25,197 nucleotides of DNA, taken from positions 1 to 25,197 of IMG/VR virus record IMGVR_UViG_3300044262_000109. One strand, written 5' to 3'. The notes under the pieces were generated by a model. That model did no database searches. It was not told where the DNA came from and saw only the letters and a list, made by a program, of their open reading frames with translations. Shown piece after piece: positions 1,229 to 25,197 of this stretch; positions within the stretch are counted from its first letter, which is position 1; each line of letters begins with the position of its first letter. The position numbers and the translations under genes were made by a program. The stretch comes from a virus. Lineage: Duplodnaviria; Caudoviricetes.

Positions 1229-1353
1229 CCTGCCGAGTATCGGCAGGCGCAAGGACAGAACAAGGAAGAATTACGCCGCCCGCCTGGCCAAACGCTGCGG
1301 CAGGCGTACCACAGCGGTTCTCAGTGTGGACGGATCGGGGAGCCAAGTACAGC

Positions 1354-1607: not shown

Positions 1608-1653
1608 TGTAAGCGCGCGCGATAATTGGCATCGTTTTGCGCGATAATTGGCA
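1608..1653. repeat. putative right end (attR) of the Mu-like prophage with two transposase-binding repeats
   Basis: TGT at 1608, then GCGCGATAATTGGCA at 1617-1631 and 1639-1653 (22-bp period, like Mu R1/R2). It lies about 100 bp past the last tail gene. Confidence 0.75.
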
Positions 1654-1755
1654 CTGGTCGACTCGTCACGTATCGCCAACAGAATTGCCCCGTCGTGAAT
1701 CGCCAGCGATCAGCAGTCGGGCAGCCGGATGCGGGCGCAGAAAGGGCCGTGTGGG

Positions 1756-2421
1756 TTACCCGCCCACTCCCGCGCTCGACGAGTACACGTACTCGAGCGT
1801 GCCGAGCGGTACACCCAACAACATAGGCGTCAACTCCGCCACGAAATCACCATCCCGGTCGTGTGCGATGGGGCACATCTGGCCATTCATCGTGCCATTG
1901 CCGGCACCGGATCGCAGGCCCTCGAAGGCCCACCACCACCCCGGGCAGTCTTGGGTTGGGCACGCAGCGCTGCCGTCGTCGGCGTGGAAGCTGAAGCCGG
2001 TGTGGGGGTTGGATACCGTGCCTGGCAGGCCATCCTCGATACTCCAGTAGTCCGTCCATATCTTTACCGACCAGGAAATATCGTTGGGGTCGCCGACCAT
2101 ATCCACGATGGCGCAATCGGCGACCGTGATCAGGCGGGCATAGTCCTCGTACGACACCGTCGACGCCGGTGATATTGAGTAGCCGTCCTCGGCCACATGG
2201 CGTGTGCCCTGCCAGAGGACATACCCGTCCGGGCGGGGCGGCTCATCAGGAAGCAGCCAGGCCGGCACCAGCCAGCCGATGCCGCGAACCACGGTCCCGG
2301 TCGGCGCGGCAGCTACGGGCGCAGGCGAGCTGGGCGCGTTGGGCGACAGCCGCACGCTGAGGTCCAGGTTTGCGCCCGGCGAGGTCGGCGCGGGCTTGGC
2401 TGGCCAGAAGCGGCGGGTCAT
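1756..2421 (-). CDS. hypothetical distal tail protein (221 aa), last gene of the Mu-like element
   Basis: ATG 2421 overlaps the stop of 2418..4037. Pro-rich N-terminal linker followed by a Trp/Cys-rich domain. Confidence 0.7.
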   Translation of the reverse strand: MTRRFWPAKPAPTSPGANLDLSVRLSPNAPSSPAPVAAAPTGTVVRGIGWLVPAWLLPDEPPRPDGYVLWQGTRHVAEDGYSISPASTVSYEDYARLITVADCAIVDMVGDPNDISWSVKIWTDYWSIEDGLPGTVSNPHTGFSFHADDGSAACPTQDCPGWWWAFEGLRSGAGNGTMNGQMCPIAHDRDGDFVAELTPMLLGVPLGTLEYVYSSSAGVGG

Positions 2422-7000: not shown

Positions 7001-7465
7001 CGGCCAGTCGGCCAGCAGCGACCAGGCGGTCGCGGTCAGCGTGAGATCCGGCGTGACGGTGAGCCGAATGCTGTTGCCGCCGGCGCCGGCGACGCGGGCA
7101 CGGAGCGTCACGTCGTCGACGGCGAGCCCGGCGGCGGCGGTCGCCGTACCCAGGTCGGCCAGGGTGTAGGTCAACACCTGGTTGGTGGCGCCGACATCGA
7201 CACCGACCACCGACAGGGTACCGTTGCCTACGCCAGCGAATACCGGCGCCGAGGCGCGCTGGGTGGTGCCACCGTCGACGACGGCGATCTCGATCGTCGC
7301 ATCCTCCGCGCCCGTGTAGTCGCCGACCAGCTTGACGCGGCCGTTGCCGGCGCGGGAAACCGCGGTCTGCTTGACCGCGGCAGACGGCAGGACGCTGGAA
7401 GCCGTTACAGCCGCCTCGGCGACGACGTTGTTGGACTGGGCGAGGAAGCGCTGGACGCCGGGCAT
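4034..7465 (-). CDS. large virion/tail protein (1143 aa)
   Basis: Long beta-rich (V/T/G/A) ORF immediately after the tape measure gene and coupled to the next gene. Confidence 0.75.
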   Translation of the reverse strand: MPGVQRFLAQSNNVVAEAAVTASSVLPSAAVKQTAVSRAGNGRVKLVGDYTGAEDATIEIAVVDGGTTQRASAPVFAGVGNGTLSVVGVDVGATNQVLTYTLADLGTATAAAGLAVDDVTLRARVAGAGGNSIRLTVTPDLTLTATAWSLLADWPAGQAYQVGPQWEFGALPLLPSGELDAASPRLRFGHDPEVYRPYREYKDGAWRVGLSPALQRDVTAGTVVWAVTGGYDVVVTDGVTPEAYADVVSFYDLCTALASSDLVEVAGVVAADRAPGGMAAVDVPLRTSAWLLSASGTALEAVSVAAAAPTETVSITCINADAIGDEVWSVSGPVSGALGQATTGVPFVSGAVSFTVPDPVVSDLGAGRFATRFNPTTRADGEAMPSVCVRNFTLGRNARPKSITFTYRERPQNDCDCNTATLSGRITNACLGLEGPDMSIDPDYKSRLDDVYGVREAFIRDETAEAGSGTSTVPDPYYQVRVTTVGEGGVAGADGVLSTDSTGGTGFAQKLLYATSAAASTAAAAIAVGNPVYYSAAEPGLNSTDYPHLGFIVAAGGEVPVSLGLAPDYEELLPRDVYPGSVLTVASVVVDGPISSASYSRSYFLANQADIDWINSVVAIMLDCLAQVYSVAAAVAEWDALWTEVQGDIAVITGGGDETSNASNDPRFLDRYRAACDNILLTAGILPKSSASTAAGDGCWRDDPSATHWWVDDSGYYFPAFSNKAYISSAASCGSGASAGIPAGEPYSTREFGMHIAVGCTERLKVGDQVTVAIEAVDGVSPYAVGDSAELAVVAAGPAWLTGGVTGDDTLTWSVVGSVDGPLADYDLTALEPAYHHGGAEVQIHRGGIPFGLGDQFTVEISAAQYKWRKDAGAWSTPADIEDGDIAIVDGLSARFTAGAAPSWVAADAWTFQARQPNAPSHVLVPTVEAWAWSGTGAVLTVDLGGVETVAALALARYDLPAGATVTIEGGDGATWPESQAMDVSGAVSVVILASAWEVSHLRVTVASASGGRIGWIWAGVPLATTYSAARCRVARAYAIQRGDGLNANRLYQGQGRKGEIAWDADSRFLFQADLDALMAMLDAMQQAGHPMILVPHHLHPGDAALVQVDMDSIDPVEYHELGPDDTAKRVYSLALALSPVHQ

Positions 7466-7467
7466 GA

Positions 7468-10449: not shown

Positions 10450-10490
10450 GGCCTATCCTTGGGATCGTTCAACCACAACGGGAGGTCGCC

Positions 10491-10682
10491 ATGAGCGACA
10501 TGGAACGCGCAGTCTCGAAGGGCATCGCCGACGAAAAGACGCGGGAGAGCATCGGCGTATTCAAGGTCATCGGGGCGGTGATCCTGGCGATCGTCGTCGG
10601 GTCGATAACCAACGTCACGATAGGCGTTGCGGTCATGCTTGGGCTCATGGTCTGGATCTGGGCCGGATACAGCCGGCGCTGA
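10491..10682 (+). CDS. small two-TM membrane protein (63 aa), antisense moron
   Basis: GGAGG at 10481-10485 before ATG 10491; hydrophobic segments VIGAVILAIVVG and IGVAVMLGLMVWIW. Confidence 0.7.
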   Translation: MSDMERAVSKGIADEKTRESIGVFKVIGAVILAIVVGSITNVTIGVAVMLGLMVWIWAGYSRR

Positions 10683-10694
10683 CAAGGCCGGACC

Positions 10695-10868
10695 GTGGCC
10701 TTCGCCACCCTGCTGCTCATGATCGCCAGCTTCGTGCTGGGCGTGGCCGTGAACGGCGCCTGGCTGTACCTGTCGGTGGCGTGTTTCGCCTGGCTGATCG
10801 TCATGGCGGCCGTGTGGGTGTGGGCCATGGCCACGGGCAGGACGGGGTTCTTCAATCGCAGGCTGTAG
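10695..10868 (+). CDS. small two-TM membrane protein (57 aa, MAFATLLLMIASFVLGVAVNGAWLYLSVACFAWLIVMAAVWVWAMATGRTGFFNRRL), in the same frame as 10491..10682
   Basis: Read by hand: GTG 10695 to TAG 10868; very hydrophobic; not in the ORF track. Confidence 0.55.
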   Translation: MAFATLLLMIASFVLGVAVNGAWLYLSVACFAWLIVMAAVWVWAMATGRTGFFNRRL

Positions 10869-10901
10869 GTCGTCATGGGGCTCGTCTCTATGCGAGCCCC
10901 G

Positions 10902-10948
10902 ACCTTACGCGCGCGCGGCGCGCCGGGGGATGCTGACCGAGGTCAGTG
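10902..10948 (-). promoter_or_regulatory. putative activator-dependent late promoter for the tape measure/tail-tip operon
   Basis: CTGACC-ga-GGTCAG dyad at 10933-10946 and -10 TAAGGT (10907..10902), with the same spacing as the copy upstream of gene I. Confidence 0.7.
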
Positions 10949-10971
10949 GGTGGCGTTATCCGCCGGGCGGA

Positions 10972-11256
10972 CTACCGGTCGAGCATGCGCTGGCAGTGAC
11001 CGGGGTCGGCCAGGTCAAGCAACCGGCAGGACCAGCGCCCCCACCACTTGCCATCCCGGCGCGCCCGCGCGCAGCGGGTGGAGAGATACTCGCTAGGCGA
11101 GCCGCCCAGGGCGGCGTTGAGGGCCTGGTCGTTGGCCTCGACCACCGCCCATCCGCGCCGGCCGCCGCGCAGGATGGAGACGGGGGCGATCAGGTTGGCG
11201 AGGATGGCCATGGCCAGGCTGCCCAGCCAGAGTGCCAGGCGGGCGAACCGGGTCAC
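10972..11256 (-). CDS. small phage protein (94 aa) with an N-terminal hydrophobic segment
   Basis: GTGA coupling at 11253-11256. DQALNAALGG.P.EYLSTR...CRLLD..DPGHC is a motif often seen after tail-fibre genes. Confidence 0.7.
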   Translation of the reverse strand: MTRFARLALWLGSLAMAILANLIAPVSILRGGRRGWAVVEANDQALNAALGGSPSEYLSTRCARARRDGKWWGRWSCRLLDLADPGHCQRMLDR

Positions 11257-11816
11257 AGCGGCCACCCCGTCTCGATGCCGATGTGGACGACCTCCAGTGA
11301 CTGCAGGTCGGTCGCGGCCGTGGCTGCATCCTGGATGGCGCCGCAGCGGCCGGCGATCGCCGCCTCCAGGGCGGAGAGGCTGGCCGCCTTGGCCAGAACC
11401 TTGTCGACCAGGGCGGCCAGGCCGACCCCGCGGCCCGCGGCCTCCATGGCCAGGTTGGGCGCAGCGGCGGCGCCCATGGCCTGGTAGGCCAGTGCCTCCT
11501 CGCGCTTGATCGGCCAACTCGCCATCTCTGCAGGTGATACCTGGGCGGTGACCGCGTCGCGCAACCGCATGGCGATGGCATCGGCGGCCGAGACGATCAG
11601 CGCCCGGTACTCGGCCACCGTGAGTACTTGCCGGGTGTAGGTCGGCCGCACGACGGCGCCATCGAGGGCGTATCCGGTGTGGACCAGGCGCTCGTAGCCG
11701 GCGCAGATGGGTTGGCTCCAGTCGATGGGATACCAGCCGTCCGACTCGTCCGGGTTGGCGCCGGCAAATCCATCCACCTGGCCGAGAGCGTCGACGTGCG
11801 CGTAGTTCATGGTCAT
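11253..11816 (-). CDS. putative tail fibre assembly/chaperone-like protein (187 aa)
   Basis: Directly follows the fibre gene; EMASWPIKREEALAY...EAAGRG...LVDKVLAKA motif. Confidence 0.65.
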   Translation of the reverse strand: MTMNYAHVDALGQVDGFAGANPDESDGWYPIDWSQPICAGYERLVHTGYALDGAVVRPTYTRQVLTVAEYRALIVSAADAIAMRLRDAVTAQVSPAEMASWPIKREEALAYQAMGAAAAPNLAMEAAGRGVGLAALVDKVLAKAASLSALEAAIAGRCGAIQDAATAATDLQSLEVVHIGIETGWPL

Positions 11817-13216
11817 TCCACCCGATACCAGGTTGCCGTCGAGGAGACGTAGTGCCAGGTGGCGTGGCCATCCGCCGCAATGGTCGTCAGCGCGCCCCGC
11901 AGGGTCTGGCCGGTGTTCGGGTTGTGCGTCACAGCCGTCACCTGCTGGGTGCTGGCCAGCGTGACGCGCTGGCCGTCATAGGGGTTCGCCGGCATGGTGA
12001 TGGTCCCGGTCGCCAGCGTGCCGGCCGGGGTCAGGATCTGGGTGAGGATGCCGTCCGCGAGGGTGAGGGCAAACCCTGTCGTAGGCGTCGTGGCGGCGTG
12101 AGTGGTCGTGTAGTAGAGCCCCCCGGGCGCAATGGTGCCGGGCGTGTCGCCGGGTAGTTTGTTGGCGTTGTTGTTCGCCCCTTCGACGATGCCGCCCAGG
12201 CCGATGTCAAAACGCTTTCCGGTGGCCGATCCGCTGAACGTGGCGGCCGGCATGTACAGCATGCCGCCATCCGCTATGGCGGCGAAGGCGGTGTGGGACG
12301 GTGCGCCAGATACCGTGCAGGCGCTCAACAGATGCACCTTGGAGCCGGGGAAGATGGCGCGCAAGAAATGGCTGCACCCGCCCGAATAAGTGTAGGCGCC
12401 ATCGCCACGGATGGTGCCAGAGATGGCGTCCAGGTGAATTCGCCCCGCACCGGTGCCGCTCAAGGCACCGAACTCCATATTGCTGAACGAGATGAAGGAC
12501 GGTTGGTCGGTGGCGCGGATCGACTGGGCGTTGGCGACGTTCGATTCGGTCTTGAATCCGTTCAGGTACACCGGCGTCGCGCAGGACGTGGCGGAGAACG
12601 CCCGCGTGGTGAAATCCTTGAGGAAGCAGGACGATGGACTGGCCGGATTGCCCAGGAAGGTCAACGACGTGAACCCGACCAGGGTCGTGACGTCGCAGTT
12701 GTCGCCGGTGTAGGTGCCGTCCGCCACGTCGATGGTCGCTGCGAACCCGGCCCCGTCCATGGTCTTGAGTCGGTCGACCGCCCGCTGGCGAGTCGCATAG
12801 GGGTTGCCGGCGCTGCCGTCGCCGGTGGTATCGCTGCCGGTTGTAGCGACATACAGCGTCACATCCGCGGCCGCCGTTTCGCGCAGGCCCAGGCCGGCCA
12901 CCGCCTGGGCCGATGCCGTATAGCCAGCCCAGGTGCGCGCCCACGGCGTGAGCGCATAGCTTGCTGCCGCACCGCTGCCCGTGTAGTACGGGGCTGTATC
13001 GGCTGCGCCGACCACGCCGGAGATCGCCCGCCCGCCCGCCGTGTGCGTGTACAGCGCCCAGGACGTACCGTTGTAGTACAAGGCCGTACCCGATAGCGGC
13101 GAGAGCCCGGCGATCTGCTCCACGTTGACCGGCAGGCCGGCGGCCGGGACGCGGTCCCCGGCCGGCAGCTCGCGCCGCCGACCGCCGACCAGGACCAGTG
13201 GGCGACGGTCGGCCAT
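11813..13216 (-). CDS. tail fibre/tailspike-like protein (467 aa)
   Basis: MADRRPLV N-terminus. TLYVATTGSDTTGDGSAGNPYAT is typical of the start of a right-handed beta-helix domain. G/T/A/S-rich. Confidence 0.7.
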   Translation of the reverse strand: MADRRPLVLVGGRRRELPAGDRVPAAGLPVNVEQIAGLSPLSGTALYYNGTSWALYTHTAGGRAISGVVGAADTAPYYTGSGAAASYALTPWARTWAGYTASAQAVAGLGLRETAAADVTLYVATTGSDTTGDGSAGNPYATRQRAVDRLKTMDGAGFAATIDVADGTYTGDNCDVTTLVGFTSLTFLGNPASPSSCFLKDFTTRAFSATSCATPVYLNGFKTESNVANAQSIRATDQPSFISFSNMEFGALSGTGAGRIHLDAISGTIRGDGAYTYSGGCSHFLRAIFPGSKVHLLSACTVSGAPSHTAFAAIADGGMLYMPAATFSGSATGKRFDIGLGGIVEGANNNANKLPGDTPGTIAPGGLYYTTTHAATTPTTGFALTLADGILTQILTPAGTLATGTITMPANPYDGQRVTLASTQQVTAVTHNPNTGQTLRGALTTIAADGHATWHYVSSTATWYRVE

Positions 13217-13737
13217 CAGGCCAGGGTGATCGGGTCAGACGGCTCGAACGACAGCTCGGTCGCGCTGGTCGCCGTGCCGACGTACTGGATCACGTTGCCG
13301 GATGCGGCCGGCAGCGAGGCGGCGTCGACCAGTGCACCTGGCGTCGCGGCCGATAGATAGTAGCGAGCGCCCGGCGTCAGGCCGGACAGTCCGGTGATGC
13401 TGCCCTCGAAGTACACCGTGGCGTCGGCGCCACTGGATACGCCGGAGAGGACAAATCCGGTCGCCTCCTTGCCCTCGGCTGTCGCGTCCGCCTTGCGTGC
13501 CTTGGCCGTGCCGGCGTCGTACCAGACGTTGACGACGTTGCCGGCGGAGAGGGCCTCGGAGGCGGGCAGCACCTTGGTGTCCGCGCCGATGCCGACCGGC
13601 ATCATGGAGTTGTCGAGGCGGCCCGTATCGTCCAGGGCCGGGATATCGCCGGCATTGGCGGCGCCGGCCGAGGACTGGACGCCCATGATCTGGGTGATGC
13701 GGCCCGCTACGACGCGGAGGAAGGATTTGGCGGCCAT
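13216..13737 (-). CDS. virion structural protein (173 aa), fibre-associated
   Basis: ASEALSAGNVV...GLSGLTPGARYYLS motif; coupled to the fibre gene; SD GGAG. Confidence 0.7.
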   Translation of the reverse strand: MAAKSFLRVVAGRITQIMGVQSSAGAANAGDIPALDDTGRLDNSMMPVGIGADTKVLPASEALSAGNVVNVWYDAGTAKARKADATAEGKEATGFVLSGVSSGADATVYFEGSITGLSGLTPGARYYLSAATPGALVDAASLPAASGNVIQYVGTATSATELSFEPSDPITLA

Positions 13738-13750
13738 GGTGGGCTCCTAT

Positions 13751-14236
13751 CTATCGAACGATGGGGGAACGGACGTCGACGAGCACCCGGGTCGCCGCGA
13801 TGGCGACGCCGATCTGCATGAGGGTGCCGGACGCGGGCGGGGTCTGGGTCAGCGTGCCGGCGGGGCCGACGTATATCGGCCCGGGTGACCAGGACCAGGA
13901 TGGCTCGACCATGTCGCCGCCGGTCTGAAGGGTGACAGTTGCGCCCAGGTCGGCCGCCCCGGTGGTGATGCCGATGGCGTCGGCGCGGTCCGGGTCGTCG
14001 GGGTCGGCGTAGACGGCGCCGGCTGCCGATGCGCAGGCGGCACGGTGGCCCCCCAGCGTCTCGGCCGCGGTCATGATGATGGGCTGGTCGGCGGCGTCGG
14101 CACCGGCCGGACCGGCCGGGCCTTGCTCGGCCACCTCAACCACATCGGCCTGGTCGTCGTGGATCTCCACCACCTCGCCGGTGATGTCGACCTCGACCAC
14201 CTCGGTGACAACGACCTCGACGACATCCTGGGTCAT
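13751..14236 (-). CDS. virion structural protein (161 aa) with a short collagen-like GPAGPAG
   Basis: ATG 14236 overlaps the stop of 14233..14577; ETLGGHRA...EPSWSW.PGPIYVG motif. Confidence 0.7.
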   Translation of the reverse strand: MTQDVVEVVVTEVVEVDITGEVVEIHDDQADVVEVAEQGPAGPAGADAADQPIIMTAAETLGGHRAACASAAGAVYADPDDPDRADAIGITTGAADLGATVTLQTGGDMVEPSWSWSPGPIYVGPAGTLTQTPPASGTLMQIGVAIAATRVLVDVRSPIVR

Positions 14237-14577
14237 ACGATGCTCCAAGTGCCGCGCAGCCAGGGCCGCGTCCGGCCGGACTCGACCAGGTCCAGGCGCA
14301 GGGCGTACTGGCCCGGCGCCATGGCGGCGTAGGCGGCATGTTGCTGATCGATGCGGACCTCGCCGGTGGCATCGAGCGCCTCGATGCCGCCCGCCGTGGT
14401 GGAGAGCGTGCACAGCACGGCGCCGCTGGCGCGGTCGAGCAGCGCCAGGGTGGCGTCCATACCCGTCATGTCGATCACCGGGCCGGTGCGGCTGGTGCGC
14501 CGACGCAGGACGAACACCCGTTCGTCGCCGTGCGATACGGCGATGGCGACCTGGGCGGCGGTGCGGTTGATGGCCAT
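14233..14577 (-). CDS. small Ig-like virion protein (114 aa)
   Basis: IDMTGMDATL...LSTTAGGI...YALRL pattern typical of fibre-attachment Ig-like proteins; coupled to the next gene. Confidence 0.6.
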   Translation of the reverse strand: MAINRTAAQVAIAVSHGDERVFVLRRRTSRTGPVIDMTGMDATLALLDRASGAVLCTLSTTAGGIEALDATGEVRIDQQHAAYAAMAPGQYALRLDLVESGRTRPWLRGTWSIV

Positions 14578-14613
14578 GGTGTCGGATGGGCGCGGCTGGG
14601 CCGCGCCTGTCTA

Positions 14614-15396
14614 TCAGACCGGCAGGGCGTCGACCTTGAAGAACGGGCCCCAGGCGCTGTCGGCGCTGAGTGCGTCGGCGTAGAGGATTTCGCCTTCCAG
14701 GGTCAGGGTGACCTCGTCCTGGGACAGCCAGTTGAAATCCTTGGTGGGGTCGAAGTCGATCAGCGGCACGATCACCCGCACCGGCGCGTTGCCCTCGGCC
14801 ACGTTGACGCCGTCGAACACGATGCCCTTGCGGGTGGCGGCGCCGGTGAACGCCGTGACGCGGCCGTGGGCGGCGTAGGCGTAGTCGGCCTTGAACGGCT
14901 GGGTATAGGCGCCCAGGTCGAGGATCTGGATGCGGCCATGAGCCGCGCTGTCCACCTTGTAGTCGGTGTCGGCCACCAGGGTGGCCGGGGTGCCGGCGCT
15001 GTCCTTCACCACGACAGAGGAGACGCCCGGGTACTTGGTGTGGACATAGTTGCCCACCGCCACGGTGGGGAAGGTTTCGCCGGTGACGGTGCTGCCGGCC
15101 ACAGAGGCGCTGGTGCCGTACAGGCCGATGGCCAGCTCGTCGCGGCTGAACTGCACCATCTCCAGGGTGACCATGGCCTCCTGGCGCTTGGTCCAGGTCT
15201 TCAGGGTCAGGGCTTGGCCGGAACAGGACTCGGGGATCTTGCCCTTCTCCCGGGTCATGGAGATCTTCAGCGTGCGGTTGCCGCAGCCGATGCGCTTGAG
15301 GTTGGTCAGGTAACCCTGGGCGGCCTGGCCGTTGGTGGCGTCGTAGTCGCCCATGAATATCGGGCCTTGACCGGTGAAGACGAGTTGTTCAGCCAT
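14614..15396 (-). CDS. major tail (tube) protein (260 aa)
   Basis: Position after gp37-like gene; FTGQGPIF...IGCGN, an internal Ig-like insert and a TLEGEIL C-terminus; SD GAGGA. Confidence 0.75.
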   Translation of the reverse strand: MAEQLVFTGQGPIFMGDYDATNGQAAQGYLTNLKRIGCGNRTLKISMTREKGKIPESCSGQALTLKTWTKRQEAMVTLEMVQFSRDELAIGLYGTSASVAGSTVTGETFPTVAVGNYVHTKYPGVSSVVVKDSAGTPATLVADTDYKVDSAAHGRIQILDLGAYTQPFKADYAYAAHGRVTAFTGAATRKGIVFDGVNVAEGNAPVRVIVPLIDFDPTKDFNWLSQDEVTLTLEGEILYADALSADSAWGPFFKVDALPV

Positions 15397-15425
15397 GATG
15401 GTGTCCTCTTAGTAAGTGGGGGCGA

Positions 15426-15593
15426 TCAGGCGGCGGCCGGTTCGGCCTTGCCCTGGGCGATCAGCCAGTCGGCCGAGTCGGCCGGCAGGGTCAGCTTGGC
15501 GCCGGGCTGGTATTCGCGGCCGGCGTGCTCGTGGGGGGCGAGCAGCTTGATGCGCTTCTCGGTGTCGGTGGGCTTGGGGTCGGTCTTGGCCAT
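15426..15593 (-). CDS. small phage protein (55 aa, MAKTDPKPTDTEKRIKLLAPHEHAGREYQPGAKLTLPADSADWLIAQGKAEPAAA)
   Basis: Read by hand. SD GGAGA; the H.HAG..Y.PG...ADWL motif is common just before tail tube genes. Confidence 0.7.
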   Translation of the reverse strand: MAKTDPKPTDTEKRIKLLAPHEHAGREYQPGAKLTLPADSADWLIAQGKAEPAAA

Positions 15594-15603
15594 GGTGGCT
15601 CTC

Positions 15604-16053
15604 CTAGTTGGCGCCCGGGCAGGGCATGTGGATCTTCTTCAGCCTGGCGGACCAGGCGAGGGGGAAATAGCCCATGCCCGCGTCAAACCCGGGCCGCGGC
15701 GGGGTCACCGGCAGCAGCGGTTTAACGCCGGTCGGCTGCCAGCCGTACAGGGCATTGAACAGGGCATCCAGGATCGGGCCGGCGTCCGCCCGGGCGTCCT
15801 CACCGCTGGCCGTGCTGCGCAGGTTGCGCACCACCACCACGGTGAACCAGCGCTCGGTGATCTCGACGCTGTTGCCGTCCGCGCTGAAGCCGGGCCCGTC
15901 GTAGACGACGTGCACCGCCGGCGCGGGCTGGGAGGCGGCCTTGATGCCGGCCAGGTCGGCGCGGGTCAGAACCTTGAGCCGCGGCACCTGGAGCGCGCTT
16001 TCGATGCGCGCCACCAGCTCCGGCTCCAGGGCGAGCAGGCCGGGTGTGCTCAC
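15604..16053 (-). CDS. Mu gp37-like tail terminator/completion protein (149 aa)
   Basis: PAVHVVYDG...WFTVVVVRN...ALYGWQP; synteny after gp36. Confidence 0.75.
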   Translation of the reverse strand: MSTPGLLALEPELVARIESALQVPRLKVLTRADLAGIKAASQPAPAVHVVYDGPGFSADGNSVEITERWFTVVVVRNLRSTASGEDARADAGPILDALFNALYGWQPTGVKPLLPVTPPRPGFDAGMGYFPLAWSARLKKIHMPCPGAN

Positions 16054-16460
16054 AGGCCGATCCCATGCCGGCGGCGGTCGGTGGTCACCATCTCGACCGT
16101 GTTCTGGCTCGCCGGCTCCGGTGCTGCGCCCAGGTTGAGGCGGCCCTGGCCGACCAGGGTCAGGAACTGGATCGCGTCCTTGTAGCGCAGCCGCACCGGG
16201 TGTTCCTGGGTGAGCTCGGCATCCGGGTACAGGTTGTAGCGGGCGATGTCGCAGGCGTAGCCGACCAGGATGCCGGGCACCGGCGACAGGGGCACCGGGT
16301 AGCGCCCGGCCAGGTAGCCGTCCACCAGGGCGCTGGCATCGGCCAGCTTCTGCTCCAGCACCGCCGCGTCGATGACGCCATCGCCCGTCCGGTCGGTGAG
16401 CTGGATCATCGGCTCCTCGCCGTAGCGGGCGATCATGTCGGCGACGGTGGCGTAGGCCAT
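16050..16460 (-). CDS. Mu gp36-like head-tail adaptor (DUF1320 type, 136 aa)
   Basis: MAYATVADMIARYG...DASALVDGYLAGRYPVPL...CDIARY.L...RYKDAI..L is the gp36 signature; start at ATG 16460. Confidence 0.88.
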   Translation of the reverse strand: MAYATVADMIARYGEEPMIQLTDRTGDGVIDAAVLEQKLADASALVDGYLAGRYPVPLSPVPGILVGYACDIARYNLYPDAELTQEHPVRLRYKDAIQFLTLVGQGRLNLGAAPEPASQNTVEMVTTDRRRHGIGL

Positions 16461-16464
16461 GGCA

Positions 16465-16857
16465 TTACTCGGCGACGATGACCACGGCGAGCATCGGCTC
16501 GGCCAGGATGGCGGCGACCTGGTCATCGCTCAGGTCGGCGGCCGGCACATCGGTCCAGTCGGTGGACCATGCACGGCCGGCGCGGCGGAAGCCGGCGCGC
16601 TTGGACTTGATTTTGTAGCCGGTGGCGACCGGCTCAGCGGCCCGGATCGGATCGAGGCCCTGGCCGTCGATCTGCTCGCCCGGGCCGAATTCGCCCTCCA
16701 CGTCCACCACTTGCCCATCCACCCCGGCCGCGTCATGCGGCCGGGGGTCGACGGTGGCGGCATCGGCTCGGTTTTCGACCGGCATAGCCGCCTTCTCGGC
16801 GTGGGCATCGGGTGCGGCTGCAGGCGCGGCTGCGGCGGTGGTTCTCTTCTTGGCCAT
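16465..16857 (-). CDS. Mu gp35/HI1506-like protein (130 aa)
   Basis: GFRRAGRAWS...LSDDQVAAILAEPMLAV C-terminal motif; located after the capsid gene. Confidence 0.78.
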   Translation of the reverse strand: MAKKRTTAAAAPAAAPDAHAEKAAMPVENRADAATVDPRPHDAAGVDGQVVDVEGEFGPGEQIDGQGLDPIRAAEPVATGYKIKSKRAGFRRAGRAWSTDWTDVPAADLSDDQVAAILAEPMLAVVIVAE

Positions 16858-16894
16858 AGTGGTCTCCTGATTGATCCGGCGGTCTCTGCCAGGG

Positions 16895-16936
16895 CGCTGA
16901 CTGCAACCCCCTCACCGGGAGGGGGCTGGGTCAGCG
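16895..16936. other. GC-rich hairpin downstream of the capsid gene
   Basis: CGCTGAC..CCCCCTC-accgg-GAGGGGG..GTCAGCG; no U tract. Confidence 0.45.
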
Positions 16937-16944
16937 TCCTGCTA

Positions 16945-17958
16945 TCAGCCGGCGCCGGTCGAGCCGATGGCCAGTTGCCAGAAGCCGTAGCCGCCGGCCG
17001 CCCTGGCCTCGGCGCCGTACTTGTATTCGGCGCGGCTGAACACGTCGTCGGCGGACATGTCGGTCTGGGACACGAACACCGGCGCCTTGCGCTCCTGGTA
17101 GATGAACGGCTTGACCGGCTTGGTGGTGTCGAGCAGGAACCAGGCGGTGTCGCTGGTCAGGCGGGCGTCCACCACCACCTCGGCCGTTCCCTTGTAGGGG
17201 TTGGCCTTGCCGTCGTCGAGGCGGTCGTTGTTCACGATGGCCAGGGCGATGTGCTCCAGGGCGGGCGGCACCAGGAGCAGGTTGGGGGTGACGTTGAGGG
17301 GCCGGCCCTCCTCGTCCAGGAACTTGCGCATGGCGGTGCGGGCGGCGCCATAGCTGGCGATGGCGGCGGCCTGGGTGGCCGCGGACAGGGCCACGGTCAG
17401 CTTGTTGGACACCGAGGCTCCGGCCACCACGTGGTCGGTATCGAAGAAGTACTGGCCATCCCAGCAGGTCGCGGCAAAGCCGTTGTTGACCAGGCCGAAG
17501 ACGATCTCGTCGGGCAGCTGCTTGGCCGAGAAGCCGGCCATCTGCGCCTGGGGCGCATAGATGCCGGTCTGGTCGTCCTCGATGTGGTTGCGCTTGACCG
17601 CCACCGTGGCCTCCCAGTCGTCGTTGACGATGGTGTACTTGAAGGCCTCCAGGCTCTTGACGAACTTATCGCCCACCCACTTGCGCATGCGCGGGAAGGT
17701 GGACAACCAGGCGTAGAGGTTCTCGCTGGTGGTGGACGGCACCCGCATGGCGATCTTTTCCCAGGTCGACGGGGAGTCCGCGAAGGCGTTGTTGAACAGC
17801 GTCTTCAAGGAGGTGAACAGGTTGGACAGGTTCTCCTTGTTGACGAGCATGCCCAGCATCAGCACGCCGCCGGCCGGGTCGGCGGCCATGACGGGGCCGG
17901 CGAACGCCGAGGCGACGACGGCCGCGAGGGCCAGGCCGGTGAGAATCAGTTTCTTCAT
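16945..17958 (-). CDS. Mu gpT-like major capsid protein with a 36-aa signal-peptide-like N-terminal extension
   Basis: VPSTTSENLYAWL..FPRMRKWVG, CWDGQYFFDTDH, AWFLLDTTKPVKPFIYQER and YGFWQLA are gpT-family motifs. Confidence 0.92.
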   Translation of the reverse strand: MKKLILTGLALAAVVASAFAGPVMAADPAGGVLMLGMLVNKENLSNLFTSLKTLFNNAFADSPSTWEKIAMRVPSTTSENLYAWLSTFPRMRKWVGDKFVKSLEAFKYTIVNDDWEATVAVKRNHIEDDQTGIYAPQAQMAGFSAKQLPDEIVFGLVNNGFAATCWDGQYFFDTDHVVAGASVSNKLTVALSAATQAAAIASYGAARTAMRKFLDEEGRPLNVTPNLLLVPPALEHIALAIVNNDRLDDGKANPYKGTAEVVVDARLTSDTAWFLLDTTKPVKPFIYQERKAPVFVSQTDMSADDVFSRAEYKYGAEARAAGGYGFWQLAIGSTGAG

Positions 17959-17985
17959 GGTGTATCTCCAGTCAGATGAGGTCGA

Positions 17986-18843
17986 TCAGGCGCTGGGCGT
18001 GATCTCGATGACGACGTTGGCGGTCACCGAGGCATCGTTGGTGCCGCCGACCGTGACGCTGATCACGTCGCCCACCGCCACCGTCTTGGCGGCGCTGGGG
18101 GCGCAGCTATCGACATCGCCGGCAGCCGAGCCGGCCTGGGCGATGGTGATGACACCTGTGGTGATGGCGGTGGAGCCGATCTTGCCGGTCAGGGTTGCGT
18201 CGCCGGTAGTCAGGGCGCCGTTGGTGACCGAGCGGATCGCCTTGATGTCGCCAGCCACCGGAGCAACGATGCGCAGCACCGTCGCATCGGCGCCGACCAG
18301 CGAGACCGCGCCCATGGGCAGGACAACCTTGTCGGCGCCGCCGCCCAGGTTGGTGCGCGCGGTGGCCTTGGTGCCCAGGTCCGACAGGTTGTTGGCCGCG
18401 AGCAGGCCGGATGCCGGGCTGACGTAGCTGTCGAAGCCCATGCGCACCCAGACGCCGTCGCTGTCCACGTCCTCGATCAGGCCCGCCACACTGCGGGTGG
18501 CCGAGCCGGAGGTCTTGGCCACGGTCTGGTCGTCCACCAGGTAGCAGACGTCGCCGATCTCGGCCACGGTGATCGCATCGGCGTCGGCGGAGTTGGCGTA
18601 GCGGAATACGCCGCGCTTGGCGGTCGCGGTCACATCGCCGGCGTCGCCGGCGGTGTTGTCGACCGTCTCCTCGAAGCGACCGACACAGAGCAGGCCGGTG
18701 GCGGTGACGGCGGGCTTGATGTTGCCGGAGGCGTCCAGCACGGCGATGCCGCCTGCGCGGCACTTCACGGCGGCGGCGACGCCCTTGTTGAGCAGCACGC
18801 CTTCGCGTTCGGGCGTGTTGCGGTCAGCGGTGAGAGCACCCAT
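17986..18843 (-). CDS. head decoration-like protein with a C-terminal fibre-like extension (285 aa)
   Basis: ALTADRNTP...CYLVDDQTVAKT...GVWV is typical of the gene between I and T; it is followed by NNLSDLGTKATARTNLG and a beta domain. Confidence 0.7.
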   Translation of the reverse strand: MGALTADRNTPEREGVLLNKGVAAAVKCRAGGIAVLDASGNIKPAVTATGLLCVGRFEETVDNTAGDAGDVTATAKRGVFRYANSADADAITVAEIGDVCYLVDDQTVAKTSGSATRSVAGLIEDVDSDGVWVRMGFDSYVSPASGLLAANNLSDLGTKATARTNLGGGADKVVLPMGAVSLVGADATVLRIVAPVAGDIKAIRSVTNGALTTGDATLTGKIGSTAITTGVITIAQAGSAAGDVDSCAPSAAKTVAVGDVISVTVGGTNDASVTANVVIEITPSA

Positions 18844-18875
18844 GTCGATCTCCTGTAATGACGGTCAGCCGGCGC

Positions 18876-19385
18876 TCAGGCGGAAGCCTGGGCGGCCAGG
18901 GTGGCCTGGAATGCCTTGGGGTCGACCCCCATGGCCGAGCACATGTCCAACTGGGAATCGGAGAGGGCGCCGGGCTTGCCGCCCAGATCCTTGTCGGAGG
19001 ACTGCATCCCCGCCAGGGCCGGGTTGGCCGGGGTGGCGGCGATGTAGGCCTTGAGCGCGGCCAGGTTGGACTTGCCCAGCTCCTCGGCCCAGGTCTTCTG
19101 GGCGGGCAGCAGGCGGCCCTCGGCCATGGCCTGGTCGATCACCCGCATCGACTCGTCGCCGTTCAGGCGGGCAGTCAGGGCGGCAACCTGGTCCCGGAGC
19201 CCCGTCATCACACCGACCTCGACATACTTCTCGGGGTCGGGCGCCTGGGCCTTCAGGGCGGCGATCTGGGTTTCCTGTTCGCCGGACTTGGCCTTGAGCG
19301 CGGCCACGCCGGCCAAGGCGTCGGCCTCGGTCGTGGTGTCCGGCAGGCCCAGCGCGGCGAGCAGCTTCTTCAGCGTTTCGTTCAC
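18876..19385 (-). CDS. internal in-frame scaffold protein (Mu gpZ analogue, 169 aa)
   Basis: GAGGAG-accacc-GTG at 19385, in frame inside gene I, as in Mu I/Z. Confidence 0.7.
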   Translation of the reverse strand: MNETLKKLLAALGLPDTTTEADALAGVAALKAKSGEQETQIAALKAQAPDPEKYVEVGVMTGLRDQVAALTARLNGDESMRVIDQAMAEGRLLPAQKTWAEELGKSNLAALKAYIAATPANPALAGMQSSDKDLGGKPGALSDSQLDMCSAMGVDPKAFQATLAAQASA

Positions 19386-19904
19386 GGTGGTCTCCTCGTC
19401 AGAGGTGGTGGGAAAGCGGGCGGACAGCGCGGCCAGGTCGGTCAGGCCATCGAGGCCGGCGAAGTTGACCAGGCCGGCGTGCTTGATATCCAGCACCCGA
19501 CCCTGGCTGTCGTAAGAGAAAACGGGGGATATGTAGCGGTATTCCTTCGCCGCGATCATCGCGGCGGCGCGCTCGGTCCATTCCGGAATGACGTACAGGC
19601 CGCCCGGCTCGCCGTCCGCCGGCTCGCGCCACTCCATGCCGGTGATCCAGCCAGCCGCAGGCGCGGGCTGGCCATTGCTGTCGGCCTTCAGGGTCTGGTG
19701 CTCGTAGTCGATCACCTTGTTGTCGGTGCGCGCATTGGCGCGGGCGATCACCTGGCGGGCCAGGTCGGCATCGATGGTCCAGCCCGGGATACCCTCCGGC
19801 CGGCCGGAGCCGTCAGCGGAGCGGAACAGCCCGGCCGGCAGCAGGCGGACGGCCTTGGCGACGGGGTCGAGCTGGAAAGAGAGGACGGCGATGCGGTGGT
19901 TCAT
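18876..19904 (-). CDS. Mu gpI-like prohead protease/scaffold (342 aa)
   Basis: LLPAG.F...DGSGRP, IDYEHQT, APAAGW, WTERAAAMIAAKEYRYISPVF. Confidence 0.92.
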   Translation of the reverse strand: MNHRIAVLSFQLDPVAKAVRLLPAGLFRSADGSGRPEGIPGWTIDADLARQVIARANARTDNKVIDYEHQTLKADSNGQPAPAAGWITGMEWREPADGEPGGLYVIPEWTERAAAMIAAKEYRYISPVFSYDSQGRVLDIKHAGLVNFAGLDGLTDLAALSARFPTTSDEETTVNETLKKLLAALGLPDTTTEADALAGVAALKAKSGEQETQIAALKAQAPDPEKYVEVGVMTGLRDQVAALTARLNGDESMRVIDQAMAEGRLLPAQKTWAEELGKSNLAALKAYIAATPANPALAGMQSSDKDLGGKPGALSDSQLDMCSAMGVDPKAFQATLAAQASA

Positions 19905-20837: not shown

Positions 20838-20865
20838 CCCCGGCCAATCGCCGGGGTTTTTGTTT
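20838..20865 (+). terminator. Rho-independent terminator closing the accessory operon
   Basis: CCCCGGC-caatc-GCCGGGG followed by TTTTTGTTT. Confidence 0.75.
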
Positions 20866-21386
20866 CAGCCTTCCAGGTAGCTCCCGACCAGGTCGAGTAT
20901 CGTCCGCTCGTCCGCGTCCGACAAGCCCAGGAACGGCCGCGCCGGGATGTCGCCCCAGGGGGCCCCGCCGCCCAGGCTGCCCGCATCGGCGCCGAATTGC
21001 TGCACGCCGCCGTAGATGGTTGGCGTGCCGATCATCACGGCGCTGTCGCCGTCGAGCTGGTAGTCGATGGTCCCGGCCAGGTTTCCTTCAGCCACGAGCG
21101 GCTTCTTGCCCATCACCGTGCCGGCGCCCTTCTTGGTCAGCTTGCCGTCCTTCTTGCCGTAGACGCCTCCGCGTCCGGCCAGGTACATCAGAATGGTGGT
21201 CTCGGTGTTGGGCGCCCAGCGCTCGCCATCGGGGCCGGTGGAGGTGGCGAAGCGCCGCTGGGTGCTGTCCTGCACCTCCGCGCCGATCTCCAGCATCAGG
21301 GGCCGCAGGTCCGACAGCCGTCCGACCAGGCCAGCCAGGTAGGCCGCGGCGTCGCGGTCATCGTAGTCGATGGTCAGCAGGGCCAT
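20865..21386 (-). CDS. Mu gpG-like virion morphogenesis protein (173 aa)
   Basis: STQRRF....PDGERWAP...IGTPTIYGGVQQFG...IPARPFLGLS. Confidence 0.9.
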   Translation of the reverse strand: MALLTIDYDDRDAAAYLAGLVGRLSDLRPLMLEIGAEVQDSTQRRFATSTGPDGERWAPNTETTILMYLAGRGGVYGKKDGKLTKKGAGTVMGKKPLVAEGNLAGTIDYQLDGDSAVMIGTPTIYGGVQQFGADAGSLGGGAPWGDIPARPFLGLSDADERTILDLVGSYLEG

Positions 21387-21480
21387 GGCTTGCTATCCTT
21401 ATCTGGTGGGCGGTTGTTTCCAATGGGAACGGTTAGGGGCGGGCATCCGCAACTATGATCCGGTTCGAATCCGGCGCCGC

Positions 21481-22716
21481 TCACGCCCCCAACGGCACAT
21501 ATCGCCGATCTCCCTCGATGTTACCCCGGTCGACCCGGCCGCCGGTGCGGATGAAATTCGCCCGGATGCGCTGGCGCTCGCCCTCGATACGGACCTTGTC
21601 GCTGTAATCGACCCGCACGACGACCTTGCCGAGCTCGGCGCCCAGGTCGATCGCGTAGACCAGGGCGTGGTCGACGGTGTCCAGATAGGGCTTCGCCCCG
21701 GCCAGCAGCGCCGGCAGGTCTCGCCACACCGACACCGGCAGGGCCGTGCCAAGGCCGGCCTTCGCGTCGCGCAGGCCGTGCAGCAACTCCTGGTCGCGCA
21801 ACCAGACCCCGGCGCTCTGGGGCGCGACGTTGCGGGCCGCCAGGTCGGCCAGCGTCTTCTCGGCGAGGGTGTGTACCAGCAGTGTCTCGCTGTGGGCCTG
21901 CATCGTTGTTTCGACCCGGTCGACCATGGCTGCCACGGCACGGCCGATCTCGGCCTGGATGACGGGCCGTAGCGCCGATGCCATGGCCGCCCCGATGGGC
22001 GCCTCCAGGTTGAGCAGCTTCTGGTCGACCAGGTCGCGCAGCTCGGCCTGGGCGTTCGCGCCGGGGGCGTAGTCCCAGCCTCGGTCGATGCCGGGCAGGC
22101 GGCCCTTGGTGTCACGCTGGTTCCAGCCGGCCGGGGGTTCGATGGCGTCGCCCTCTGCCGGCGCCCGCACGGCCTTGACGCGGCAGCGGCAGCCCCAGCC
22201 ATTTGGCGGGTAGTGGGTGAGCCAGAAGGCATCATTGTGGTGCAGGGTCAGCCCGGCATCGCCCCATTCCTTGTGCTGTTTCCTGGGGTGCGCCACCGAG
22301 TCGTTGTGAATGTAGCGCCAGTACGGCCGCACTTTGAGCAGGTCGGGGTCGTTGAGCTGCTGCCATCGTCCGGCGGCGTAACTGGAGGCGATGTTGGTGT
22401 TGTAGACCACCCTGGTGCGCCAGGCCTCGCCGGCCTGGGTGCCCTCGCCGGTCCAGCCGGTCCAGCCATGTTTAGCCACGATGGCCTTGAAGTTCTTGCG
22501 GAACGTGGCCAGGGTGTCGCCGTTTGCGATGGCGCCGTCGACCGCTCGGCGCAGATCGTCGAGCAGGTCCGCCGACTGGGCGCCGGCGACGATGAAGGCG
22601 CGGTCGTGGGCGGCGGTCCAGATGTCGTCCCAGCGTTCGGTGGGCAGATTGAGCTTGCGGCGGAAGAAGTCGATCTGCTCCCGGAACGGCAGGCGAACGG
22701 TGAGGATATCGGCCAC
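21481..22716 (-). CDS. Mu gpF-like minor head protein (411 aa)
   Basis: PFREQIDFFRRK, AHDRAFIVAG, HPRKQH..W, FWLTHYPPNGWGCRC. Confidence 0.92.
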   Translation of the reverse strand: MADILTVRLPFREQIDFFRRKLNLPTERWDDIWTAAHDRAFIVAGAQSADLLDDLRRAVDGAIANGDTLATFRKNFKAIVAKHGWTGWTGEGTQAGEAWRTRVVYNTNIASSYAAGRWQQLNDPDLLKVRPYWRYIHNDSVAHPRKQHKEWGDAGLTLHHNDAFWLTHYPPNGWGCRCRVKAVRAPAEGDAIEPPAGWNQRDTKGRLPGIDRGWDYAPGANAQAELRDLVDQKLLNLEAPIGAAMASALRPVIQAEIGRAVAAMVDRVETTMQAHSETLLVHTLAEKTLADLAARNVAPQSAGVWLRDQELLHGLRDAKAGLGTALPVSVWRDLPALLAGAKPYLDTVDHALVYAIDLGAELGKVVVRVDYSDKVRIEGERQRIRANFIRTGGRVDRGNIEGDRRYVPLGA

Positions 22717-22718
22717 GC

Positions 22719-23522
22719 CTATCCCTCGTCGGCCACGTCACCCATGCCCCACAGGTGCCCGGCCGCCATCGCCTCGCTCATGGCCACCACCAGGCCGGCG
22801 CGGTCGATCGTCGGGTAGGCGGCGACCAGCATCTCGCGGAAGGCCTCCAGACTGTCGGCCTGGTCGAGCATGGCGCGGATGGTCTCCAGCCAGGCCTCGA
22901 TGTTGGGGGCCGCCACGCCGGCCAGGCGGGCGGCGAGCTGGTCCTCGATGGGGATGTCGGCCGGTACCGATCCGGACAGGGCCGCCAGGGCTGTCTTGTT
23001 CGCCCCATCCGCTGGCGTTGTTCCCTCACCCCGGGCCCCTCTCCCGGTGGGCGATGGGGGTACACCGAACACCGCCTCGTCCCCGGCCGCCTGGGGGATG
23101 CGCAGCTTCTCATGCACCCAGGCGACCGGGATGCGGGCGCCGTTCTCGGCCAGCTTCGGCAGCGCCTCGGAGTAGGTCTTCAGATCCTCGGCGCTGCCGG
23201 TGTCGAACACCCAGCGCGGGCAGCGTAACAGACCGTTGATGCCGGGCCGGTTTAACGCGATCAGCGGATACACCAGGTCGCGGGTGAGCGTGCCGGCCAC
23301 CTGGCGGGCGTCGGCGTCGCGGATGACGGCCAGGCCGAGGCGGTGTGCGACCAGGGCGTCGCGCACGGGCTTGGGGAGGGTGGCAACCGGGTAGTGACGG
23401 CGACGGCCACCGCGCACGGGGTGTTCCTGGTAGGGCCAGGATTCACGCTCAGCTCGTTGGCTGGCTGCCTGACGGCTGACACCCAGCGCCGCCGCGATCT
23501 CGATCAGGGTGGCGTGGTTCAT
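22719..23522 (-). other. in-frame fusion ORF: MuA transposase N-terminal HTH domain joined to the C-terminal part of a Mu gp29-like portal
   Basis: EIAAALGVSRQAASQRAERESW...GGRRRHYPVATLPKPVRDAL (Mu-type HTH), then from about 23324 IRDADARQVAGTLTRDLVYPL...CPRWVFDT..EDL...LPKL (gp29/DUF935 C-terminus). Alternative start at 23540. Confidence 0.8.
23023..23060 (+). repeat. REP-like CCCTCACCCC..CCCCTCTCCC palindromic element lying in frame in the portal C-terminal linker
   Basis: ccctcaccccgggcccctctcccggtgggcgatggggg; translates as PSPTGRGARGEG on the - strand. Confidence 0.55.
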
Positions 23523-23538
23523 GGCATGATTCGCGCTC

Positions 23539-23793
23539 ATGGACGACCCCGATTTCAATCAATTGCTCGACCGCGTAATGGCGATCGAGTTTGCCCTGTC
23601 AGAGCTTGTTGTTGAGCTTGAGCGGTCTGGCCGTCTTGACGAGGGCTCGCTCGATCTACGCCTGGCAAGGGTGTCTTCGGAGATTCTGGAAGGCTCTGCG
23701 CCTCACCAGGGCGATCCTCGTCGCGACCTTTCCGGGATTTCCGAAGATCTAGAATCGCTGATCGACGACTTAGTGCGTGCTCGTAGGCGTTGA
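23539..23793 (+). CDS. acidic helical hypothetical protein (84 aa), antisense to the early operon
   Basis: Fills the gap between 23797 and the fusion ORF; more protein-like than the overlapping - strand ORF. Confidence 0.5.
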   Translation: MDDPDFNQLLDRVMAIEFALSELVVELERSGRLDEGSLDLRLARVSSEILEGSAPHQGDPRRDLSGISEDLESLIDDLVRARRR

Positions 23794-23796
23794 GAC

Positions 23797-24237
23797 TCAT
23801 TTGTCCTCCCCGAGTACCTTCTTGATTGCCCGCTCCTGGCGGGCGATCTCACCCTTCATCATCTCCAGCCGGCCCAGCTCAGCCTGGAGGCTCTCCTTGC
23901 CAGGCAGCACCCGGCAGCCCAGCTTGGCGGCGAACAGCGACACCAGCGTCATCGACCCCGTCGCCGCGTCGAATGCGATCGCCGTTTCGAGGCTCGGGTG
24001 GTGTTCCTCGGCCGCCTCGCTGGTGTACTTGTCCAGGGTGTTCACCGATACCTCGCGCCCCAGCAGCCGGCCCATGTCGGCGGCGATCTGGTAGCGGTCC
24101 TTGCCGCTGTTGCGGATCGCCTCACCCATGGCGTGGGCGATCTCGACCCGGAAGCGCCAGGCGCCCGGATTCATCGGGTGGGCCTGGGGGATGCTGGCGA
24201 ACAGGTCGCCGGTCAGGCTGTCGATCACGCGACGCAT
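23797..24237 (-). CDS. Mu-like early protein following ner (146 aa), probable DNA-binding
   Basis: ATG 24237 adjacent to the ner stop; DRYQIAADMGRLLGREVS..TLDKYTSEA motif typical of the post-ner gene in transposable phages. Confidence 0.78.
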   Translation of the reverse strand: MRRVIDSLTGDLFASIPQAHPMNPGAWRFRVEIAHAMGEAIRNSGKDRYQIAADMGRLLGREVSVNTLDKYTSEAAEEHHPSLETAIAFDAATGSMTLVSLFAAKLGCRVLPGKESLQAELGRLEMMKGEIARQERAIKKVLGEDK

Positions 24238-24238
24238 G

Positions 24239-24583
24239 TCAGGCCGCCTTCTCCAGGTTGCCGGATGCGGCAGCCGCCCTGCTATTGCGCGCCTTTTCCC
24301 TCGCGTTAAACTGCAAAGCACGCATGCCGCGCGGCTTTTGCGTGCCGTCGTCGTTCCAGCGGCTGGGCCAGATCTCCCAGACCGGCACGCCGATGGCGTC
24401 GGCGATCCGCTTCTCGTTGAGCGGATAGCTGCGCAGGAAGGTGTGGGACAGCGGCGTCGCAGTGCTCATGCCGTGTTGCTGCGCCAGCGCGGCAAGGGTC
24501 CAGCCGGCCTTCGCCAGGGCGGCCTTGATGTCGGCCGGGTGCCAGTCCTCTCGACTGGTTTTTTTTGCGGGGTTGCTTGCCAT
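24239..24583 (-). CDS. ner: Ner-like DNA-binding protein
   Basis: DWHPADIKAAL.K.G.TLAALA...EKRIADAIGV...IWPSRW is the Ner/Nlp signature. Confidence 0.92.
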   Translation of the reverse strand: MASNPAKKTSREDWHPADIKAALAKAGWTLAALAQQHGMSTATPLSHTFLRSYPLNEKRIADAIGVPVWEIWPSRWNDDGTQKPRGMRALQFNAREKARNSRAAAASGNLEKAA

Positions 24584-24725
24584 CGTCTTTGCTCGTTGGT
24601 GGTGGCTGATGGAATGGCATTACAGATCAGATTTGATACCACGTCAAGCGGTTTGACATGGTTGCGGCTTTATTTTTGATACCTTTTTCGCGGAATTATG
24701 AAATACACAATAGAAACAACAGGAT

Positions 24726-24793
24726 ACCGAAAGCTGCAACCTACCTGTAGGTTGCAGCTTTCGGTTGCAGCTTTCGCATGGAAAGCTGCAACC
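24726..24793. promoter_or_regulatory. operator/enhancer array of four GAAAGCTGCAACC 13-mers
   Basis: Copies at 24729-24741 (+), 24750-24762 (-), 24763-24775 (-) and 24781-24793 (+). The first two form a 19-bp perfect inverted repeat (24726-24744/24747-24765). Confidence 0.75.
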
Positions 24794-25197
24794 TGAGGCC
24801 AGCGCTCGCTGAGCGCCTGAAAAAAGCTAGATTGGCACTCGGTTACACGCAATCCGAGTGGCACGAGGCATCCGGCATGCCACTACCAACGCTCAAGGGG
24901 TACGAGGGATCAAAAGCAATACCCGGCGGGGAAGCGTTGTGCTTGTACGCCCGAGCTGGTGTTCGTGTTGACTGGCTGCTGACCGGCGAAGGCCCGATGC
25001 TGCTGAAGGACATGCACCAGGTGGAGGTGCGCGATGTGCCGGAGGCTATCGACGAGAAGCTCCTGGCGCTGTGCATCCAGGGCGTCTACATGGCAGAGCC
25101 GGGCTGCCCGCCTGACAAGGCCGGGCGGTCGGCCGTCGCCTACTACTTCAGACTGAAGGCCATGGATATGGAGTCCGACTCGGACAAGGCGGCATAA
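24778..25197 (+). CDS. XRE-family HTH prophage repressor (c-like, 139 aa)
   Basis: LAERLKKARLALGYTQ...TLKGYEG...PG...GVRVDWLLTGEGPM; divergent from ner. Confidence 0.88.
   Translation: MESCNLRPALAERLKKARLALGYTQSEWHEASGMPLPTLKGYEGSKAIPGGEALCLYARAGVRVDWLLTGEGPMLLKDMHQVEVRDVPEAIDEKLLALCIQGVYMAEPGCPPDKAGRSAVAYYFRLKAMDMESDSDKAA

Follow-up and report, generated by a model that had tools for sequence, protein, structure and literature searches.

In phage Mu, the transposition enhancer overlaps the operator and is contacted by the transposase MuA through its N-terminal domain, according to the excerpted text of PMC3145075, and a low-level early transcript is present in Mu lysogens (PMC3820752, in part). 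Among incomplete prophages, the genes for lysis, portal and terminase are preferentially lost, as stated in an excerpt of PMC7744054. For grounded prophages, an excerpt of PMC6379469 proposes that the host gains an advantage when a prophage is disarmed while its repressor is kept. The portal of phage JBD30 has a tunnel loop formed by residues 301-325 (PMC11445458, in excerpt).

We analyzed a 25,197-nt stretch of viral DNA (Duplodnaviria; Caudoviricetes; IMG/VR record IMGVR_UViG_3300044262_000109, positions 1 to 25,197), hereafter the window. Its Mu-type features comprise a c/ner/A early module, a right end and a head module (F, G, I and T, with the portal shortened), and its gene content identifies the element as a defective member of the Mu-like transposable prophages. 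The region is tiled by 24 coding stretches (20,991 nt), and the features needed below are as follows, with the evidence in brackets.

1608..1658 (-): Mu-like right end, with two repeats and a terminal CA at 1609-1608 (match to L046 and G005)
1756..19904 (-): head and siphovirus-type tail block, comprising I, Z, T, gp36, gp37, major tail protein, fibre region, tape measure and tail tip (PHROG; collinear with G005)
20865..22716 (-): F (411 aa) and G (173 aa), directly behind the fusion, with a 2-nt gap to the F start (Pfam, PHROG, relatives)
22719..23324 (-): portal-derived back of the fusion, 201 aa (Pfam, PHROG, portal alignments)
23324..23325 (-): deletion junction (intact relatives G005 and G001, and a bridging contig)
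23325..23540 (-): transposase-derived front of the fusion, a MuA I-alpha-type DNA-binding domain of ~72 aa (Pfam, PHROG, L017 alignment)
23539..23793 (+): antisense ORF of 84 aa lying between cII and A (without a match to any family in Pfam or PHROG)
23797..24237 (-): CII-like early regulator (phrog_2345), intact (PHROG, comparison with relatives)
24239..24583 (-): ner-like repressor, intact (Pfam, comparison with G005)
24660..24793 (no strand): five-copy array of 11-14 bp, direct and inverted, across the c start; probably the transposition enhancer (copy count, layout, covariation)
24778..25197 (+): c repressor of the XRE/HTH_3 type, intact (Pfam, PHROG, comparison with G005)

The minus-strand ORF at 22719-23558(-) reads without interruption for 279 aa from a TTG, although an ATG at 23540 or 23522 is the likelier start. 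The initial annotation, made from the letters alone, had read this ORF as switching in frame from a MuA-type domain to a portal C-terminus, and the profile searches it proposed bore this out: in the 279-aa numbering, the front matched transposase phrog_310 at aa 11-74 (E 7e-6) and HTH_Tnp_Mu_1 (PF02316) at aa 32-76 (E 0.0015; 19.3 bits, below the curated cut-off of 23.3), and the back matched Portal_Mu at aa 78-154 (Pfam, E 6e-14) and portal phrog_113 at aa 79-278. By the Pfam and PHROG split, the two halves meet at LGLAV/IRDADARQ. At the equivalent gene position, L017 encodes a 716-aa transposase whose N-terminus shares 65-68% identity with the front; this alignment extends through AV, and similarity to the portal DNA of G005 begins at base 23325 (82% over 262 nt), and we therefore placed the joint at 23325/23324. 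The residue before the I is D in most aligned portals, one of which reads HDIRDADARQ, and one base is perhaps shared at the joint. No long repeat was seen there in the comparison with G005 DNA, with the parent sequence being needed to judge longer microhomology.

Full-length Mu-type transposases, including that of L017, carry the PF02316-type domain at the N-terminus, and most of the 120 proteins matching this domain are 650-790 aa long and carry PF09299. Judging from these alignments, the DNA-binding domain appears to be retained whole, with the cut falling in the linker. The portal fragment aligns from about residue 330 of the 526-residue JBD30 portal, just past the tunnel loop. By this alignment it is without the stem, clip, tunnel loop and most of the wing, and it is not expected to form a portal. 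The AlphaFold model of the whole fusion was poor (pLDDT 58, pTM 0.31), because the alignment placed portal sequence over the front, and a clear helix-turn-helix was absent from the weak single-sequence model of the front. Foldseek searches with these weak models returned nothing at E<=0.001; 1QPM and 1TNS stood near the top of the ranking for the front, but with E above 1, and 1G4D was matched at E 0.21 with a weak model. A GC-rich palindromic element, which may be akin to REP-type elements, lies at window 23020-23065 inside the variable linker of the portal C-terminus, and an element resembling it terminates the short, domain-only transposase ORF of a heavily deleted Mu-like remnant (L100:4418-6882, G392).

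Intact relatives indicate what was lost. In G001 (L017 and L025), the gene order is c, ner, cII, A, B, early genes, late activator, terminases, portal, F, G and I, and G005 (L044, L117 and L118) is collinear with the window from c through the right end. Both have the c-ner-cII-A and portal-F-G-I orders in common with the window, with ner and cII 72-83% identical, and G005 also has the tail order and right end in common. Unlike the window, they encode a full-length A (716 aa; ~735 aa), early genes, a late activator, terminases and a whole portal, and B was identified in G001. The span between the junction-equivalent positions measures ~16.05 kb (16.1) in G001 and 14.3 kb in G005, and contains the transposase core, B, early genes, late activator, terminases and the portal front. 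The absence of this intervening gene set, asserted in the initial annotation, was upheld: the transposase core, B, late activator, lysin and Mu-type terminase had no match among window ORFs (Pfam, PHROG), and tblastn of the A core and B against the window gave no match. The remnant is at least 23.6 kb long, so that, with the missing span added, the parent would have measured ~38-40 kb. This is a usual size for the Mu-like phage group; phage records give 36.7 kb for Mu and 37.7 kb for JBD5. Relatives of the early genes were mostly found in Gallionellaceae and allied genomes.

The remaining genes carry no visible decay, as had been noted from the letters, and this supports the earlier description of the prophage as very recently deleted: the switch, the head and tail ORFs and the right end are intact and collinear with G005. 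The right end is 90% identical to the G005 end over 49 nt and also matches the L046 end, and the c stop codon forms the edge of the window. When the 24 coding stretches were compared with G005, C-terminal ends mostly agreed where a true homologue exists; the mismatches were Z, extended here by an additional domain, and T and the tape measure, with tails that align more poorly. F has the same length as in G001, and one of six fibre-region or tail-end genes without a G005 match is matched over its whole length in L013-L015. The dN/dS ratios against G005 (0.25-0.95) were rejected as a gauge of post-deletion selection, since the comparison is deep and six genes have no true match there. In a rough model that treats the late genes as neutral, the lack of a break in ~17 kb bounds divergence since the deletion at ~0.2-0.6% per site; this bound fits a strain-level event, and selection would look the same. 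A sigma-70 scan found no promoter at the c/ner switch.

Several other features of the window were observed. The gene between I and T at 17986-18843 (-) encodes 285 aa, ~150 aa more than its relatives (~135 aa), and its extra C-terminal domain belongs to no known family. Small antisense ORFs lie between cII and A (23539-23793, +) and between G and I (20232-20713, +), and an 87-aa antisense ORF has a relative at the same position in L004. Outside the Mu right end, a second, unrelated prophage begins (window 1-1252, -). It comprises a 317-aa gene that is conserved (16 relatives, in whose records it often comes first), an ORF of 65 aa and the first part of a 550-aa gene; the last of these precedes a T4-like portal in L027. 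Neither the 317-aa gene nor the 552-aa relative had a family match, and from their position these genes are presumed to encode terminase subunits. We considered this region as a relocated terminase module and rejected it, given its location beyond the Mu right end and its relatives, which belong to another phage type.

A single instance of the fusion was found. It forms a cluster of one on a single JGI/IMG contig of 37,063 bp, 11.9 kb of which lies outside the window, and 19 of its 20 protein matches, all but itself, span the portal part only. An exact scan of viral and metagenome contigs, from which those of the fusion's own genome may be missing, for the junction 25-mer gave 0 matches, and when residues 1-72 were used as query against proteins of 150-478 aa, the fusion itself was the sole return out of 467 candidates. 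Matches were present in 179 phage and 28 plasmid records, each covering less than 80% of the fusion, and Portal_Mu was annotated in 0 of 119 other proteins with the N-terminal domain. No published report of such a fusion was found in a literature search mostly outside subscription journals. Neither the same junction nor a full-length homologue of the ORF turned up in these searches; the initial annotation held that such homologues would speak against a deletion if they occurred in intact phages with a separate transposase and portal.

Deletions of this kind occur elsewhere. We surveyed three samples of 317, 222 and 401 genomes for transposase genes, leaving out four short Mu-type-repressor-like matches, one match off a contig end and one duplicate of G005. 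Deletions had cut 3 of the 25 transposase genes with known ends, 1 of the 3 in frame. In that case (L046:10447-11088), the transposase front (aa 7-142) is fused to a head-protease C-terminus within a Mu remnant of ~3 kb in which c, ner, cII and the right end persist. In L045, the cut transposase continues out of frame into the remains of a methylase, and that of L097/L100 ends after the domain, with additional deletions, among them an out-of-frame one that extends to the portal C-terminus. At the protein level, the same domain is fused in frame to a terminase large subunit (P0208), a tail fibre (P0076) and an early regulator (P0072), all known as proteins only, without their DNA; the fusion scan covered 70 of 149 non-self matches in one search and 11 of 120 in another. 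All three of the other fusions that we looked up were singletons, the P0208 cluster having one member.

L046 and these three proteins resemble the window in having the transposase N-terminus in frame with the back of a downstream phage gene, but their A breakpoints range from ~aa 60 to 240 and they have other partners, never the portal. Breakpoints and partners that differ every time are what would be expected of random deletion; the kind of event is recurrent, whereas the window fusion is a singleton. Selection for sparing the domain cannot be judged from these data, because the searches were seeded with the N-terminal domain and detect only deletions that spare it. Other arrangements of the domain included tandem copies in long transposases, attachment to XRE repressors and a position behind a relaxase-annotated protein (P0021, P0035, P0062, P0134 and P0265). 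In L132 (G366), a full-length A is followed within ~5 kb by a late activator and I-/G-like genes, which suggests another internally deleted prophage.

The array at 24660-24793 contains five matches to an 11-mer, against 0.19 expected by chance. Its layout (52-53 bp from first to fourth copy) was present in 16 of 19 loci, with differing motifs. The array loci are the window, L017, L019, L044-L052, L059, L064-L066, L071 and L120, and the covariation test was run without L133 and without L047, L053 and L132, in which the four-site layout was not detected. Motif distance was correlated with the transposase helix (Spearman's rho = 0.63; 0.58 controlling for c and Ner), compared with 0.38 (0.28 partial) for the c helix and 0.10 for Ner, in permutation tests that ignore relatedness and in which c also correlates. 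The clearest contrast is that of L051 and L052, which have near-identical c helices and identical Ner segments, yet differ in motif and in transposase helix; conversely, the motifs of L051 and L059 are near-identical despite unlike c helices. Because the motif tracks the transposase helix over that of the repressor, and because enhancer and operator overlap in Mu, the array is probably a transposition enhancer, and the fusion front may still bind it. The repeats near 24726-24793, earlier named as a target of the retained domain, are therefore plausible in that role. We regard the array as the more useful by-product of this analysis: its sequence changes along with the transposase helix among 16 prophages, and it possibly represents an enhancer-recognition code, open to testing, for Mu-like phages whose repressors are of the XRE type, a group in which the repressor is no homologue of the transposase domain.

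We consider it very probable that the window records ordinary recent prophage decay, in which one deletion, in frame by chance, left a chimeric ORF probably without a selected function. A single recent deletion likely removed ~14-16 kb, from transposase codon ~72 to portal codon ~320-330, and would have arisen by short-homology or illegitimate recombination, since the joint shows no long repeat. Replication, late activation, lysis and packaging would have been lost in one step with c surviving, and the host would likely gain by these losses while c, and so probably immunity, stays. F and G, which do now lie downstream of the early operon as first proposed, would ride on the early transcript behind the fusion, and the I-to-tail operon, without its presumed activator, would probably be silent. 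Some fusion protein may exist, because Mu lysogens make a low early transcript; its operon would normally be held at a low level by the intact repressor. An in-frame state is expected in one-third of random deletions, and the intact ~21 kb is compatible with a recent event and also with selection. Against decay stand the whole domain and the perfect putative target sites, and, in an excerpt of PMC7744054, transposase genes are enriched in incomplete prophages, not lost. The earlier view of the element as immobilized holds only in the absence of a helper, since the right end is intact and the putative enhancer is kept, and a compatible helper phage could move the element in the manner of mini-Mu if the left end survives beyond the window.

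Other readings make the fusion either an artifact or a functional product. The DNA was matched in one public DNA run, X1, a sediment metagenome that is possibly the source run, and in no RNA run, a result without bearing on expression. There, a 1140-nt Logan contig covers 22539-23678 with 0 differences at a depth of 5.7, close to that of neighboring Logan contigs (3.4-8.2), and flanks the joint by 785 and 354 nt. The Logan contigs of X1 end at breakpoints other than those of the window's assembly, and this contig probably re-assembles the same reads and does not represent another sample. An assembly or library chimera would be compatible with the low depth (~6), the single run that may be the source and the use of contigs rather than raw reads, but we regard it as highly improbable: no X1 contig extends either flank into an intact transposase or an identical portal (23180-23480 examined), and the joint has no visible long repeat of the kind discussed above. 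The second of the two records at 23180-23480 is another phage's portal (88% identical, 9 differences in 76 nt, depth 2.4). A junction-spanning contig with no alternative path argues against misassembly, and together with the 14.3-16.1 kb that intact relatives carry at this place, it substantiates the large deletion.

If the fusion were real and kept by selection, it might bind the five-site array and, possibly multimerized by the portal crown, damp the early switch or block transpososome assembly by related phages. The whole domain with its cut in the linker, the covariation of array and domain helix (r 0.63; partial r 0.58) and the contact between MuA and the overlapping enhancer in Mu (PMC3145075, in excerpt) are in keeping with such a blocker, which is nonetheless very unlikely: the fusion is a singleton, and the other cases each have a different partner and breakpoint. 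Moreover, a same-immunity phage would already be stopped by c, a different-immunity phage would not turn on the resident early promoter, and the array motif differs among most relatives, giving a narrow target range. A decoy role would thus add little to c and would reach only phages with the same motif. A broader version, also very unlikely, holds that deletions that begin inside the transposase gene and leave its enhancer-binding domain are favored, with the leftover domain, joined here to a possibly self-associating portal crown, binding the array across the c start and the early promoter and serving as a second lock or as a decoy against phages of the same enhancer code. In that scenario the transposases of grounded Mu-like prophages would time and again be converted into repressors; if true, this would be a repeatable route from transposase to immunity factor. 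Tailocins are not known to keep capsid genes, and the capsid genes are retained here. Together with the gene order, which is that of an intact phage, the restriction to one contig and the failure to find a lysin, late activator, terminase or whole portal in the window, this makes a domesticated tailocin- or GTA-like particle system, with head and tail genes kept for host use, extremely improbable, although these genes have no visible breaks and their ends match homologues where present.

Recent decay therefore remains our preferred reading. The domestication suggested in the initial annotation is not borne out, the fusion having been found once and the same domain being joined to unrelated partners elsewhere. 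For the same reasons, and because one-third of random deletions fall in frame and c would normally repress the operon, the dominant-negative role against related phages that it raised is unlikely. The window captures prophage decay cleanly at its first step, with killing and packaging functions gone and the switch left. In-frame chimeras recur in Mu-like remnants and are alone no evidence of function.

Compared with known systems, the two halves of the fusion correspond to domain types found in phage Mu (MuA I-alpha, PDB 1TNS; gp29 portal, PDB 9KHX) and in the JBD30 portal (PDB 8RKA), with transposase and portal fused only by the deletion. The Mu enhancer is near the repressor gene, and the repeat array of the window lies at the corresponding place; in contrast to Mu, c is here an XRE-type helix-turn-helix protein, not an I-alpha homologue, and the tail is of the siphovirus type. 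Mobility, lysis, portal and terminase are lost here and the repressor is retained, as in grounded and defective prophages described in excerpts of PMC6379469 and PMC7744054; unlike those, the window has one clean deletion, no other visible decay and ends that are apparently kept. Similar to the mini-Mu (LER) units in the excerpted text of PMC3145075, the element still has one end and a probable enhancer but no A or B, whereas it is natural, ~24 kb long and has only the right end within the window, with its mobilization in trans being putative.
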